Virus record (IMG/VR): IMGVR_UViG_2571042372_000009
DNA: 16,793 bases
DNA from: a virus
Taxonomy: Duplodnaviria; Heunggongvirae; Uroviricota; Caudoviricetes
Direction: 5' to 3' (one strand)
Shown here: piece after piece, positions 3,894 to 16,254 of the stretch
Layout: every line of letters starts with the position of its first letter
Position numbering within the stretch: position 1 is the first letter of the stretch
Translations under genes and position numbers: made by a program
The notes under the pieces: model-generated
Told to the model about the DNA's origin: nothing
Seen by the model: the letters and a program-made list of their open reading frames with translations, nothing else
Database searches by the model: none

Positions 3894-3993
3894 TTTGTTT
3901 TACCTCATTACAGATTTAAGGGTGAACAAATCCCTGCCGGTGATGCTGCCAACTTACTGATTTAGTGTATGATGGTGTTTTTGAGGTGCTCCA

Positions 3994-4269
3994 GTGGCTT
4001 CTGTTTCTATCAGCTGTCCCTCCTGTTCAGCTACTGACGGGGTGGTGCGTAACGGCAAAAGCACCGCCGGACATCAGCGCTATCTCTGCTCTCACTGCCG
4101 TAAAACATGGCAACTGCAGTTCACTTACACCGCTTCTCAACCCGGTACGTACCAGAAAATCATTGATATGGCCATGAATGGCGTTGGATGCCGGGCAACT
4201 GCCCGCATTATGGGCGTTGGCCTCAACACGATTTTACGTCACTTAAAAAACTCAGGCCGCAGTCGGTAA
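3994..4269 (+). CDS. insA: IS1 InsA (transposition inhibitor / N-terminal part of InsAB' transposase), 91 aa
   Basis: [23 protein letters not shown]... zinc-finger N-terminus characteristic of IS1 InsA; lies inside the IS1 boundaries. Confidence 0.9.
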
Positions 4270-4691
4270 CCTCGCGCATACAGCCGGGCAGTGACGTCAT
4301 CGTCTGCGCGGAAATGGACGAACAGTGGGGCTATGTCGGGGCTAAATCGCGCCAGCGCTGGCTGTTTTACGCGTATGACAGTCTCCGGAAGACGGTTGTT
4401 GCGCACGTATTCGGTGAACGCACTATGGCGACGCTGGGGCGTCTTATGAGCCTGCTGTCACCCTTTGACGTGGTGATATGGATGACGGATGGCTGGCCGC
4501 TGTATGAATCCCGCCTGAAGGGAAAGCTGCACGTAATCAGCAAGCGATATACGCAGCGAATTGAGCGGCATAACCTGAATCTGAGGCAGCACCTGGCACG
4601 GCTGGGACGGAAGTCGCTGTCGTTCTCAAAATCGGTGGAGCTGCATGACAAAGTCATCGGGCATTATCTGAACATAAAACACTATCAATAA
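4188..4691 (+). CDS. insB: IS1 InsB (expressed as InsAB' transposase by -1 frameshift), 167 aa
   Basis: Overlaps the insA 3' end in the -1 frame downstream of the A-run slippery site; length and position as in IS1. Confidence 0.85.
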
Positions 4692-4706
4692 GTTGGAGTC
4701 ATTACC

Positions 4707-5159
4707 GAGAAAGATGATGTCTACATAGCCAATTGTATAGAAAAAGGTAAGACTGAATTTAAAGTAAGCAAAGATATTGCTGCGTTGCCTTTCAAGGGTG
4801 AACCCATCGAGAAAATTAGGGGAGAGCTAATCAGGTCAATCAAGGAACACTTGATCAGTGCAAGCTGGCATAGCACTAAAAAGGTAATCGACCGCTATGA
4901 AGCTACATTCGATATAAAAGTACAAAAAGACTGTCCGATAGAAGCTATTGAATTGGCAACCCTCAATCGAAATCACTTAGTGCATCGTGGTGGAAAGGAT
5001 AAAGAAGGGAACCTCGTAGTGATTACAGACCAGGATCTTGAAACGCTGATTGAAAATGCATCGAACCTGGCAATTATGCTCTACAACAGTTTAAATGTAG
5101 CAACGAATAAAACCACCATTTTGCAACCAGATGACAAACCGTTCATTCATGAATTTTAA
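4707..5159 (+). pseudogene. 5'-truncated ORF interrupted by IS1; product carries a HEPN-like R-x4-H motif (RNHLVH)
   Basis: The reading frame is open from the IS1 right end to TAA at 5157-5159 with no in-frame ATG/GTG. The first possible start is TTG at 4785 with no SD. Motif ...IEAIELATLNRNHLVHRGG... (R codon at 4968-4970, H codon at 4983-4985). Visibly AT-rich relative to flanking phage genes. Confidence 0.5.
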
Positions 5160-5174
5160 TAGCGCAGGTCATAC

Positions 5175-6176
5175 ATGGATATTCGCACACGAAAGACAAA
5201 ATTTTTAGAGTCGTTAGATTCAACTGAAGTGATACGCAAAGCAGTAAGTCTCGCTATAGATTGCATTATTGATAATCATAATAGTAATGAAGATACCCCC
5301 TTAGTTATTACCAGCTATGATGATCTCTGTAGAATCCAGGTGCTAAATTATGTACAGGAGTTTTGCGAAGCTGCATTCCCTGATATGGATGAATATTACT
5401 TTAGTCCTAACATACTTCGCATCAACGGCAAGACTAGTGAAGAAGCTTGTATTAACTTAATTAAACTCTTAAGAAGTACAAAAGGCATGCTATTCTGGTC
5501 CGATGCCCCATCGTGGTTCGCTAGCCTCCCCGACGGATTATTCCATGTTGTTAACATTGATCAAAAAATCGTTACTCGCGGCCTTAATAAGAAAAACTCT
5601 AAGCCGACAATAATCAATAAAGATTACAGTGTAGATACACTACTATCAGAGCTATTTTTGAATGGCGCACACATGGAGCAACCCAACGTACACAACGTTT
5701 CTGAGGGAAACATGAAGTTCTATGATGAATGCCATGCTGGATTAATCAGACCAATACCCGCTCCAATAGGCGCGTCATACGATGAAGAGATCACAATTAA
5801 TTCTCCAGATTGGCAAAAGCTCGCGTGTGTAGCTTTACGCCGCTATCAGTCGAAGGAATGTCATGACGGAATGCAATGGGATACAACCGATCATGGTTGG
5901 ACTGATGTAATCGCGTATCCATTCGTCGAAGAAATACAATCAATGGATAATAGTGGTTATCGACAATGTTTAGTTGGGCTGGTCACAATAAACAATTCAA
6001 ATGCAAATTCTCCGTACCTATCTACCGTTTGGATACATCCATTTTATCGCAGGAGAGGGTTATTAAGTAAGTTATGGCCAAAATTACAAGAGTTATATGG
6101 AAGTAACTTCGAAATTGAGCGACCTAATGAAAATATGAAAGCATTTCTGAAAAGTGCGAAACACGCAGATTACTAA
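5175..6176 (+). CDS. Hypothetical protein, 333 aa, C-terminal GNAT-like acetyltransferase-fold motif
   Basis: ATG at 5175 lies 15 nt after the upstream stop, with AGGT upstream. AT-rich codon usage. C-terminal ...VWIHPFYRRRGLLSKLW... resembles GNAT motif A (h-x-P-x-Y-R-x-x-G-h-x-x-x-L), and NENMKAFLKSAKH resembles motif B. The N-terminal about 170 aa is unassigned. Confidence 0.7.
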   Translation: MDIRTRKTKFLESLDSTEVIRKAVSLAIDCIIDNHNSNEDTPLVITSYDDLCRIQVLNYVQEFCEAAFPDMDEYYFSPNILRINGKTSEEACINLIKLLRSTKGMLFWSDAPSWFASLPDGLFHVVNIDQKIVTRGLNKKNSKPTIINKDYSVDTLLSELFLNGAHMEQPNVHNVSEGNMKFYDECHAGLIRPIPAPIGASYDEEITINSPDWQKLACVALRRYQSKECHDGMQWDTTDHGWTDVIAYPFVEEIQSMDNSGYRQCLVGLVTINNSNANSPYLSTVWIHPFYRRRGLLSKLWPKLQELYGSNFEIERPNENMKAFLKSAKHADY

Positions 6177-6492
6177 TTTATGAATCAGTCTGTGGAGTTA
6201 GGGTTGGTGTCAACAAGTAGGGTAAGAGCCTCAACGTGATGCTATGCCGACCTGCTCCCTGAGAATTCACACAGAAGGCTGCTAGCAATGTCTGCAGATC
6301 GCTCAAAGCGGACTAGAAGGTTAGCTTGCGTCGGACTTGGCGTATTTAAAGAAGTGCTGGTGGTGACTGGTTGTTGTGTTCCATTTCTACAGAACAAAAT
6401 CACAGAAACTATACCCAATAGTTATATTGAATCAATGATGAGACAGCCTCATATTTATCAGAACTGGTGTACGTCCAATACAGGAGGTTGTC

Positions 6493-6582
6493 GTGCTGGT
6501 TCTCAAATGTGCGCTAGCTATTGCGGCTGTAATGGCAATTTATTGTCTTGCTGTTGTTCTTATGGATCGCCTTTCTGATTGA
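6493..6582 (+). CDS. Candidate small hydrophobic peptide, 29 aa (GTG start)
   Basis: Consensus SD AGGAGG at 6483-6488, four nt before GTG. Product VLVLKCALAIAAVMAIYCLAVVLMDRLSD is one predicted transmembrane helix. A possible TTGAAT-17-CATATT promoter lies upstream. Not in the ORF track because it is under 60 aa. Confidence 0.3.
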   Translation: MLVLKCALAIAAVMAIYCLAVVLMDRLSD

Positions 6583-6636
6583 TTTTATATTGGCGAGGTG
6601 ACGGGAGTTAAGTAGAATTGCTGCGGGTGCTTGAGG

Positions 6637-6672
6637 CTATCTGCCTCAGGCATGAACACCAAAGGCAGATAG
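6637..6672 (+). promoter_or_regulatory. Perfect 10-bp inverted repeat (CTATCTGCCT ... AGGCAGATAG) in the hok/mok leader
   Basis: Arms at 6637-6646 and 6663-6672 with a 16-nt spacer. Candidate hok mRNA fold-back or antisense-target element, or a protein operator. Confidence 0.4.
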
Positions 6673-6793
6673 AGAAAAGCCCCAGTTAATATTACGCGTC
6701 CTGCAAGACGCTTAACATTAATCTGAGGCTCAATCTATGAACGGCAAATCTAGGTTAGCCTCTTACGTGCCGAAAGGCAAGGAGAAGCAGGCT

Positions 6794-6949
6794 ATGAAGC
6801 AGCAAAAGGCGATGTTAATCGCCCTGATCGTCATCTGTTTAACCGTCATAGTGACGGCACTGGTAACGAGGAAAGACCTCTGCGAGGTACGAATCCGAAC
6901 CGGCCAGACGGAGGTCGCTGTCTTCACAGTTTACGAACCTGAGGAGTAA
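6794..6949 (+). CDS. hokD: Hok/Gef family type I toxin (HokD/RelF-like), 51 aa, nested in the mok frame that starts at 6737
   Basis: MKQQKAMLIALIVICLTVIVTALVTRKDLCEVRIRTGQTEVAVFTVYEPEE matches the Hok/Gef family as recalled. The overlapping upstream in-frame extension (70-aa ORF from 6737) is mok-like. A stable 3' hairpin follows. Confidence 0.85.
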   Translation: MKQQKAMLIALIVICLTVIVTALVTRKDLCEVRIRTGQTEVAVFTVYEPEE

Positions 6950-11319: not shown

Positions 11320-11395
11320 GGCCCTTTAGCTCAGTGGTGAGAGCGAGCGACTCATAATCGCCAGGTCGCTGGTTCAAATCCAGCAAGGGCCACCA
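11320..11395 (+). tRNA. tRNA with CAU anticodon (Ile2/lysidine type or Met), 76 nt
   Basis: Manual fold: acceptor GGCCCTT/AAGGGCC, D-arm GCTC/GAGC, anticodon loop CTCATAA, T-loop TTCAAAT, 3' CCA encoded. Resembles ileX/ileZ-type genes as recalled. Confidence 0.85.
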
Positions 11396-11402
11396 TCACA
11401 TA

Positions 11403-11479
11403 CCGCCATTAGCTCATCAGGAAAGAGCGCCAGCCTTCGAAGCTGGTTGCGCGGAGTTCGGGTCCCCGAAGGCGGTCCA
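11403..11479 (+). tRNA. tRNA-Arg (UCG anticodon), atypical, 77 nt
   Basis: Manual fold: anticodon stem CCAGC/GCTGG with loop CTTCGAA. One acceptor-stem mismatch (A6/A67), one T-stem mismatch, and T-loop TTCGGGT with G at the usually conserved A58 position. CCA encoded. Confidence 0.6.
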
Positions 11480-11492
11480 TTATCTGTATCCT

Positions 11493-11569
11493 GCGTTGTT
11501 AGCTCAGCCGGACAGAGCAATTGCCTTCTAAGCAATCGGTCACTGGTTCGAATCCAGTACAACGCGCCA
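11493..11569 (+). tRNA. tRNA-Arg (UCU anticodon), 77 nt
   Basis: Manual fold: perfect acceptor stem GCGTTGT/ACAACGC, anticodon stem ATTGC/GCAAT with loop CTTCTAA, T-loop TTCGAAT, CCA encoded. Confidence 0.85.
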
Positions 11570-15245: not shown

Positions 15246-15552
15246 AAACCGGCCAAGGATAATCCGCTGAAGATTCGCCGGTGGCTAAAGTGTGCCAAGA
15301 GTTCAATTTACGCAATTACTCCTGTCGATGCTATGTACCGTCTTTGTGAAGTCAATGGATACCTGATTTATTTCTGTGCGCTGTATCGTCGCTGTACTCT
15401 TGCATTAATTATGACTGTAGCCTGACGGGGAACTCCTTCTGCACAAGTGTGGGGGAATAATCAAAAACGATGCACACCGGGGTTACCGGGTACACATATT
15501 TCATCATGCCAGCGAGTCCGGTTCTGGCACGGAAGAAACCGGACGTTATGAT

Positions 15553-15978
15553 TTAGTGCGGAAATATTTGTGTAGTGTTCTGAATGTTCTCAGTAAAGAG
15601 TAATGAATTATCAAAGGTATAGTAATACCTTTTGTTTTCGTGGATATTTGTAATCCATCTGAAAACCCCTGCTGTAGCAAGATTTTTCCTGTATTCGTAA
15701 AATGATAACTCTCCTGATTTGAATCCTTTTAAGGTGGCTTCTATAAGGCATTTATTTTTTGAAAATCTTACATTTACAACCTTACCCTGTCCTTTTATTA
15801 AAACCGTATTATCGTTTTCAAGAACAAGATGAATATTCTCTGTGGCTAAATAGTAAATGTAATGTGAGACATTGTGACGTTTTAGTTCAGAATAAAACCA
15901 GTGATAGTTTAAATTATTTCGCACTTTATCGAATATTTGTTTAAAAATGGCAATCTGAGCCATTGTAGTACCTTCCAT
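15553..15978 (-). CDS. Hypothetical AT-rich moron protein (possibly YbcV/DUF1398-like), 136-141 aa
   Basis: AT-rich minus-strand ORF. The second ATG (15961-15963) has SD GGAAGG upstream and is the more likely start. Family naming is tentative recall. Confidence 0.55.
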
Positions 15979-16020
15979 GTGATATGAGGGGGGGTAGTCT
16001 GCACGATTATCTAAATTGCT

Positions 16021-16254
16021 TCAATCTGGTCTGACCTGTTTTCTGAGCAATTCAGTAATGTCACTCTTTTCTTTGTTTGCTTCAGGCGAAACTCTTTTTT
16101 CTGAGCACAGTCTCCGGCGGCAGGCTTCAATGACCCAGGCTGAGAAATTCCCGGACCCTTTTTGAACAAGAGCGATGTTAATTTGTTCAATCATTTGGTT
16201 AGGAAAGCGGATGTTGCGGGTTGTTGTTCTGCGGGTTCTGTTCTTCGTTGACAT
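16021..16254 (-). CDS. Ribbon-helix-helix (Arc/CopG-like) small DNA-binding protein, 77 aa
   Basis: ...RNIRFPNQMIEQINIALVQKGSGNFSAWVIEACRRRL fits the beta-strand/helix/helix RHH pattern. Located 42 bp upstream of the 141-aa ORF on the same strand. Confidence 0.55.
   Translation of the reverse strand: MSTKNRTRRTTTRNIRFPNQMIEQINIALVQKGSGNFSAWVIEACRRRLCSEKRVSPEANKEKSDITELLRKQVRPD

Follow-up and report, generated by a model that had tools for sequence, protein, structure and literature searches.

RNA cytidine acetyltransferases of the TmcA/NAT10 (Kre33) type carry a helicase-like P-loop domain N-terminal to a GNAT domain. HepS of the Salmonella prophage Gifsy-1 is a solo HEPN protein that acts in abortive infection as a self-contained anticodon nuclease and has no partner that inhibits it (PMC13043305), and PF18870 marks the aRES defence proteins, in which a PF18870 N-domain is fused to a RES NADase (bioRxiv 10.64898/2026.01.28.702374). 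The locus considered here lies in a viral DNA stretch of 16,793 nucleotides (nt) (IMG/VR record IMGVR_UViG_2571042372_000009; the whole stretch is referred to below as the window), which is a lambdoid prophage adjoining ompW in Escherichia coli and is identical in sequence to strain FDAARGOS_1301. In the window, a complete coding sequence (5175–6176, plus strand, ATG to stop) encodes a two-domain protein of 333 amino acids (aa), preceded by the 3′ remnant of a gene for a HEPN protein.

We propose that the 333-aa gene is self-sufficient moron-type cargo, coding for a family-specific N-terminal α/β domain followed by a trimmed GNAT acyltransferase core. The explanation that we prefer, held with about even confidence, is a stand-alone acyltransferase carried as cargo by mobile elements, which recognises a macromolecular target through its N-domain and helix α1 and acts in inter-element conflict, defence or counter-defence. 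A first-pass annotation made from the sequence alone had described the gene and its upstream neighbour as AT-rich, unlike the flanking phage genes and probably horizontally acquired, and this was borne out. The GC content was 0.391 for the 333-aa open reading frame (ORF) and 0.391 for the upstream remnant (4707–5159), as compared to 0.485 for the window and 0.514 for the downstream phage genes, and the 1470-nt two-gene unit had the lowest value among all segments of this length sampled every 50 nt. The protein is identical to WP_000354966.1, which E. coli genome annotations list as a hypothetical protein, and it falls in PHROG 16994 (phrog_16994, E = 4.5e-246), which corresponds to this family and is listed in PHROG as of unknown function. 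The labels given by NCBI are "hypothetical" and, for fragments, "GNAT family N-acetyltransferase".

Predicted structure of the 333-aa protein

AlphaFold2 (AF2) gave a model of the 333-aa protein with a predicted local distance difference test score (pLDDT) of 90.1 and a predicted template modelling score (pTM) of 0.82, in which folds were predicted for both domains. The C-terminal domain, from about residue 203 to residue 333 (5781–6173, plus strand), has the secondary structure elements of a GNAT core in the order β1-α1-α2-β2-β3-β4-α3-β5-α4, so that the GNAT-like C-terminal half proposed in the first-pass annotation is supported at the level of the predicted fold. The resemblance to motif A seen there is real but weak in sequence: residues 264–311 matched Pfam Acetyltransf_1 (PF00583) with 19.9 bits (E = 9e-4), as against a gathering cut-off of 20.7 bits, and the same model matched 16 of the 41 family members at E ≤ 0.01, the best with E = 6e-6. 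The motif A equivalent was located at L282–W301 (6018–6077, plus strand; LSTVWIHPFYRRRGLLSKLW), covering β4 and the start of α3, on the basis of the family alignment (A1); its register and that of the catalytic Tyr were set with hhalign against RimI. Within this segment T284, W286, H288, P289 and R292 are invariant; all 41 members have R292, and 33 of them have G295.

The N-terminal domain (residues 1–172; 5175–5690, plus strand) is predicted to be an α/β domain with a P-loop-NTPase-like topology; it is devoid of a Walker A motif and presumably is not an NTPase. Its conserved residues are D29, C30, I32, N34, W108, D110, R135, G136 and N138. As in the first-pass annotation, which recognised nothing in the first ~170 residues, no match to this part was found among Pfam, NCBIfam, PADLOC or PDB sequence profiles. 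A profile of the domain retrieved 22 representatives among 1.84 billion proteins, all of which had the same architecture or were fragments thereof. The N-domain is an orphan, obligatorily fused to the GNAT core, and the fused two-domain architecture is strictly conserved. It was also noticed that stand-alone relatives of the C-domain exist (160–165 aa, 30–38% identity), on a phage contig (L046, 3619–5411) and on a Cupriavidus plasmid (L042, 3935–4432), one of them being encoded in a phage replication module, where its gene overlaps the stop codon of a gene for a DUF3987 primase/helicase-like protein. Derivation of the N-domain from the DUF3987 P-loop protein that precedes the stand-alone homologue on the phage contig was considered and rejected (hhalign probability 0.2%).

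Evidence for and against acyltransferase activity

Several features of the C-terminal domain weigh against catalysis. The motif A loop, Q/R-x-x-G-x-G/A in the GNAT superfamily, is degenerate: at position 297 every one of the 41 members has L, M or I rather than the canonical G/A, and 8 of the 41 lack G295. The position that corresponds to the catalytic Tyr of RimI-type enzymes is aliphatic (L, M, I or V) in the family, and strands β6-β7 are absent, all members ending 5–9 residues past the invariant F324 of α4. Given these features, the domain could be non-catalytic, a GNAT-fold pseudoenzyme whose trimmed core has lost acyl transfer and acts in binding instead, e.g., as a decoy, an inhibitor or a sensor of a phage or host factor. 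Furthermore, no family match assigns an activity to the 333-aa protein, for which an acyltransferase role is predicted; the position of the window protein just under the Pfam cut-off and the lack of a PDB sequence match even with profiles point the same way. We regard the pseudoenzyme explanation as doubtful. Many true GNATs deviate in motif A and rely on different catalytic residues. In addition, invariant polar residues are dense in the predicted β4/α3/α4 cleft and α1 (T284, W286, H288, R292, Y308, N318, W213, K215, R222, Q225, E228, C218 and C265), a set that argues for a functional site in the C-domain. Those on β4 and at the starts of α3 and α4 (T284, W286, H288, R292, Y308 and N318/N320) fall in the CoA-binding and catalytic region of GNATs, and the invariance of C218 and C265 likewise speaks against a pseudoenzyme.

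An ordinary small-molecule acetyltransferase, modifying an antibiotic, a polyamine or a metabolite and carried as a fitness gene, might be suspected from the top structural neighbours of the model, which include spermidine/thialysine and aminoglycoside acetyltransferases. However, these are generic GNAT neighbours with 10–18% identity, recurrent resistance or metabolic genes were not found in the neighbourhood, and the C-terminal strands that bind the acceptor are missing. Moreover, the unusual conservation of helix α1 and the obligatory extra domain point to a macromolecular partner. A small-molecule substrate is therefore improbable.

The first-pass annotation had also pointed to GNAT toxins that acetylate aminoacyl-tRNA, and this likeness was not supported. 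The 333-aa protein shares with type II GNAT toxins (AtaT, TacT, ItaT and KacT) the GNAT fold and carriage by mobile elements, and the weak motif A match would also be in keeping with a classical toxin having the upstream gene as its antitoxin. The two differ, however, in size and architecture (333 aa in two domains versus a single domain of ~170 aa, range ~160–180), in the partner gene and in the catalytic Tyr, the position of which is aliphatic here. No small antitoxin gene of the DUF1778/RHH kind is present; the upstream gene encodes a 320-aa HEPN protein or, at other loci, is replaced by unrelated genes, and it has repeatedly been lost next to an intact GNAT-like gene, a loss that the cell would not survive if the upstream gene were an antitoxin. 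No PADLOC, Pfam or NCBIfam toxin model matched the protein. A toxin of this type is thus highly improbable, being largely refuted by context, and a role as a classical toxin-antitoxin partner is disfavoured.

For the stand-alone acyltransferase that we prefer, a mode of action can be outlined. The protein would use acetyl- or acyl-CoA in the β4/β5 cleft, for which the invariant T284, W286, H288, R292, Y308, N318/N320, C218 and C265 would provide the residues, and the N-domain together with the highly conserved helix α1 would recognise a conserved macromolecular target. In this way it may serve its element in conflict with others, either defending against phages as a single-gene effector or counteracting defences. 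An active protein would represent a new GNAT subfamily, set apart by its trimmed core, by a P-loop-like partner domain that is an orphan and by its confinement to prophages, plasmids and islands.

Distribution of the family on mobile elements

The 333-aa family comprised 66 clusters among 5.8 billion proteins, all of ~330 aa and all from Gammaproteobacteria, with identities of 38–99%, and it is restricted to prophages, plasmids and islands of these bacteria. The settings were the lambdoid accessory slot between the replication and nin/Q genes, prophage ends, plasmids and a relaxase island adjoining SIR2/cREC genes, and the neighbours of distant homologues included a CbeA antitoxin, a DUF4400 gene of an integrative and conjugative element, a helix-turn-helix (HTH) gene, PolA, a beta-lactamase-like gene and SIR2_2. 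The gene was present in 209 of the 5,426 complete E. coli genomes (~4%), mostly those of extraintestinal and avian pathogenic strains (ExPEC/APEC) such as UTI89, S88, APEC O1 and IHE3034. Its ratio of nonsynonymous to synonymous substitution rates (dN/dS) was 0.13–0.53, solo-versus-solo comparisons included, indicating purifying selection. A distribution over prophages, plasmids and islands is typical of genes of phage-host or inter-element conflict, and a role of the 333-aa gene in defence or conflict is plausible from its genomic context. Two results count against such a role: only 1 of the 10 neighbours tested matched a defence model, and no family in PADLOC-DB v2.0.0 matched the 333-aa protein at E ≤ 1.

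Other searches with the 333-aa protein were likewise uninformative as to function. NCBIfam gave insignificant matches only (E = 0.048 or worse), PDB sequence-profile searches returned nothing meaningful for the full-length protein, for a profile of its C-domain or for a divergent family member, and BFVD gave only weak single-domain GNAT matches. In a phage collection searched by megablast and tblastn, no homologue was detected. The family was not described in any paper retrieved by literature searches, whether by accession or for prophage systems with GNAT and HEPN genes. The protein belongs to a known superfamily and has an orphan partner domain.

Three further database entries are of note. 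In a metagenome-assembled genome (MAG) of Psychrosphaera (L013, 10–2483), a GNAT-like homologue of 43% identity is followed after 15 nt by the start of a 504-aa SIR2_2 protein with matches to the defence models ThsA and LmuA (E = 1e-19). The 3.3-kb contig JAIHTM010000277.1 (L003), labelled as a Collinsella sp. MAG, was 100% identical to the E. coli HEPN/GNAT-like pair, and is most likely a binning or contamination artefact rather than an indication of presence in Actinomycetota. A partial match labelled Mycobacterium tuberculosis (P0213) looks similar to this case.

Relationship between the 333-aa gene and the upstream HEPN gene

The first-pass annotation had treated the two genes as a unit, and in part this view stands. 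A HEPN/GNAT-like cassette with an identical 15-nt spacer was found in E. coli prophages, Serratia grimesii, a Citrobacter IncFIB plasmid, a mobilisable island of Aeromonas caviae (the relaxase island adjoining SIR2/cREC genes) and a metagenomic contig, and 205 of the 209 E. coli carriers of the GNAT-like gene also have the 5′ part of the HEPN gene. Interdependence, in contrast, was not supported. Comparison of the loci revealed that 1) the HEPN gene has been inactivated independently at least six times, the GNAT-like gene being full-length each time, by truncation at differing breakpoints in the window, in Citrobacter (L033–L036), in Enterobacter/Rahnella (L005 and L028–L030), in Mangrovibacter (L038) and in A. 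salmonicida (L037), and by a frameshift in a Providencia plasmid (L041), 2) GNAT-like homologues at 38–62% identity have unrelated neighbours and neither a HEPN gene nor a remnant of one, and 3) one HEPN gene from the clade that occurs in the pairs (77% identity, 320 aa) is solo, flanked by housekeeping genes. The GNAT-like gene is independent of the upstream HEPN gene. Since it has remained intact and under selection after HEPN losses, has unrelated neighbours elsewhere and is matched by a solo HEPN gene, the two are separable modules that co-travel in one sublineage, with a functional link being possible. Two observations leave room for such a link: the spacer is identical across very different elements, and losses are skewed, with six HEPN inactivations as against one disruption of the GNAT-like gene and one HEPN-only locus. 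The disruption was found in E. coli SF-173 (L039, 1969–3747), in which a different IS1A splits the GNAT-like gene at about codon 187, leaving the upstream HEPN gene and the N-domain part (codons 1–187) intact; the 3′ fragment bears the NCBI name "GNAT family N-acetyltransferase".

By analogy with type VII toxin-antitoxin pairs (HEPN-MNT), the HEPN ribonuclease could be a toxin or abortive-infection effector and the GNAT-like protein an enzymatic neutraliser or regulator that acetylates the HEPN protein or its RNA substrate, in which case a solo GNAT-like gene would be an antitoxin orphaned by the loss of its toxin. The conserved spacer of the cassette, its prevalence among the E. coli carriers and the loss skew, with only one reverse case in which the N-domain is still encoded, are what such a pair would show. 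On the other hand, obligate co-occurrence would be expected of a HEPN gene and its neutralising partner, whereas each of the present genes occurs without the other: the same-clade HEPN gene between housekeeping genes is solo, as are HEPN homologues of 56–75% identity in P2-like and other prophages, and the GNAT-like homologues at 38–62% identity are conserved yet never have a HEPN neighbour. Purifying selection on GNAT-like genes long after HEPN loss and the viability of SF-173 with an intact HEPN gene and a split GNAT-like gene are also difficult to reconcile with a neutraliser, and solo HEPN defence proteins are inactive by default (PMC13043305). We therefore consider this explanation unlikely. 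A related and slightly less likely idea is a new two-gene immunity module, in which the acetyltransferase restrains the HEPN ribonuclease by acetylating either the nuclease or its RNA target, solo GNAT-like genes being orphan protective modifiers kept after toxin loss. It is retained because of the loss skew (six versus one or two) and the invariant structure of the cassette; if it were true, acetylation of the RNA target would be an RNA-level analogue of restriction-modification. Together with the adjacent HEPN gene, the 333-aa gene is a candidate for defence encoded by a prophage that could be tested at little cost.

The upstream HEPN gene

The truncation of the upstream ORF noted in the first-pass annotation was confirmed and could be traced to IS1: the remnant (4707–5159, plus strand) consists of the last 150 codons (171–320, plus stop) of a 320-aa HEPN gene, with 100% identity over residues 171–320 by tblastn, and is listed as a pseudogene by NCBI. 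The intact protein in E. coli UTI89 is WP_014639476.1 (320 aa). The HEPN catalytic motif R258-N-H-L-V-H263-R264 (Rx4H) is still encoded in the remnant (4968–4988, plus strand), and R258, H263 and R264 are invariant in 23 HEPN homologues down to 26% identity, in agreement with the Rx4-6H signature of the HEPN superfamily. The homologues form more than 120 clusters, extending to Acidobacteriota and Desulfobacterota, and many of them carry PF18870 (HEPN/RES NTD1) and PF18735 (RiboL-PSP HEPN). The UTI89 protein itself scored 22.2 bits with PF18870, below the cut-off of 27.4 that many homologues exceed; its PADLOC matches were insignificant (RTasHEPN, weak, E = 0.015), and a profile of the HEPN protein showed no sequence relation to any PDB chain. 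From the invariance of Rx4H and the domains on the homologues, the upstream gene is read as a separate candidate HEPN ribonuclease of abortive infection, with a PF18870-type N-domain and an Rx4H HEPN domain.

Solo HEPN homologues of 56–75% identity were located in the gpA-ogr slot of P2-like prophages of Yersinia, beside a ParE/HTH pair in Dickeya and at a prophage end in Aeromonas. In the Yersinia P2-like prophages (L018–L020, 4001–4945), a 314-aa homologue with 69% identity lies alone between gpA and ogr/portal. Because a HEPN homologue stands alone in this accessory slot, the HEPN family may itself be a defence candidate, possibly a stronger one than the GNAT-like gene, though it is destroyed in the window.

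Sequences flanking the 333-aa gene

Alignment and blastn of the upstream regions of 11 loci revealed a conserved stretch of ~85–105 nt preceding the start codon (5070–5174, plus strand), which contains the last HEPN codons, the 15-nt spacer and a ribosome-binding site (AGG). All close homologues have kept these roughly 100 nt, including those that have lost the remainder of the HEPN gene. This retention makes the stretch a candidate for the gene's own promoter and translation-initiation region, from which the 333-aa gene would be transcribed in the lysogen. Against this, a promoter scan gave matches no more frequent than in shuffled sequence, with one weak sigma-70-like match at 5050–5077, so conservation is the sole basis of the putative promoter assignment.

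The 3′ flank (6177–6313, plus strand) was 80–95% conserved by blastn and alignment, among Enterobacterales loci only. A structured RNA was considered for it and rejected, since the fold z-score was −0.26, no Rfam family matched and the region is unconserved outside Enterobacterales. Sequence past ~6313 was found in E. coli-type loci only. The spacer between the 333-aa gene and sok contains an unannotated ORF of 96 aa (6288–6578, plus strand) with a Cys-rich C-terminus (…CRAGSQMCASYCGCNGNLLSCCCSYGSPF), which had no match in a Pfam search.

The IS1A deletion and other features of the prophage

Annotation, comparison with UTI89 and mapping of the junctions located a 768-bp IS1A element at 3939–4706 (plus strand), adjoining codon 171 of the upstream gene, the intact form of which has 320 codons in UTI89. 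The insertion was accompanied by a deletion of 5,506 bp of UTI89-type prophage (window 3894–4706 versus locus L001 1495–7000), comprising ydfD, dicB, ydfABC, the repressor gene, cro, ydaT, the replication genes, DUF977 and HEPN codons 1–170. With the entire immunity and replication region gone, the prophage copy in the window should therefore be non-inducible and defective. The deletion junction was found in only 4 of the 5,426 complete E. coli genomes.

To the left, the prophage retains the integrase, excisionase and exonuclease genes of a lambdoid prophage, and to the right hokD/sok, DUF968, RusA, the Q antiterminator, a DNA methylase, tRNAs, holin, lysozyme and Rz. The hokD/sok type I toxin-antitoxin locus (6625–6949) lies ~450 nt downstream of the 333-aa gene, sok being identified by an Rfam match at 6625–6799 (113 bits) and the hokD coding sequence spanning about 6794–6949. 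Three tRNA genes are located 3′ of the DNA methylase gene (11320–11569), one with a CAT anticodon (tRNA-Ile according to NCBI) and the others being Arg-TCG and Arg-TCT. Transfer RNAs on phages can offset tRNA-cleaving nucleases, and it is worth recording that this element, if intact, also encodes a candidate HEPN nuclease. A second AT-rich patch (15400–16200, GC 0.32–0.38) is located 3′ of the lysis genes and contains on the opposite strand a DUF1398 gene (15553–15978, minus strand), which is probably further cargo.

Comparison with known systems

Within the GNAT superfamily (PF00583), the 333-aa protein stands apart in having no sequence-level relative in the PDB, and its family differs from the other members by L, M or I in place of the last Gly/Ala of motif A, by the lack of Tyr at the usual catalytic position, by a chain that ends right after α4 and by the obligatory 170-residue N-terminal domain. 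The likeness to the TmcA/NAT10 (Kre33) enzymes is one of architecture only. These combine an active P-loop helicase with GNAT_acetyltr_2 and tRNA_bind_2 domains, whereas the 333-aa protein is half as large, has no Walker A motif and matched none of Pfam Helicase_RecD, GNAT_acetyltr_2 and tRNA_bind_2; AAA+, STAND and ORC domains outscored NAT10 in the comparison.

For the upstream gene, the closest analogue is HepS, with which it shares the HEPN domain, the Rx4-6H motif, the accessory slot 3′ of the lambdoid replication genes and the occurrence of homologues without a conserved partner; in HepS and its curated homologues (PMC13043305) the chain has fewer than 250 aa and R100-H105 forms the motif, whereas the upstream protein is 320 aa long, with the motif at R258-H263 and an N-domain of the PF18870 type. 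With the aRES proteins, the family of the upstream gene has the PF18870 module in common, the effector being RES in aRES and HEPN here (bioRxiv 10.64898/2026.01.28.702374).

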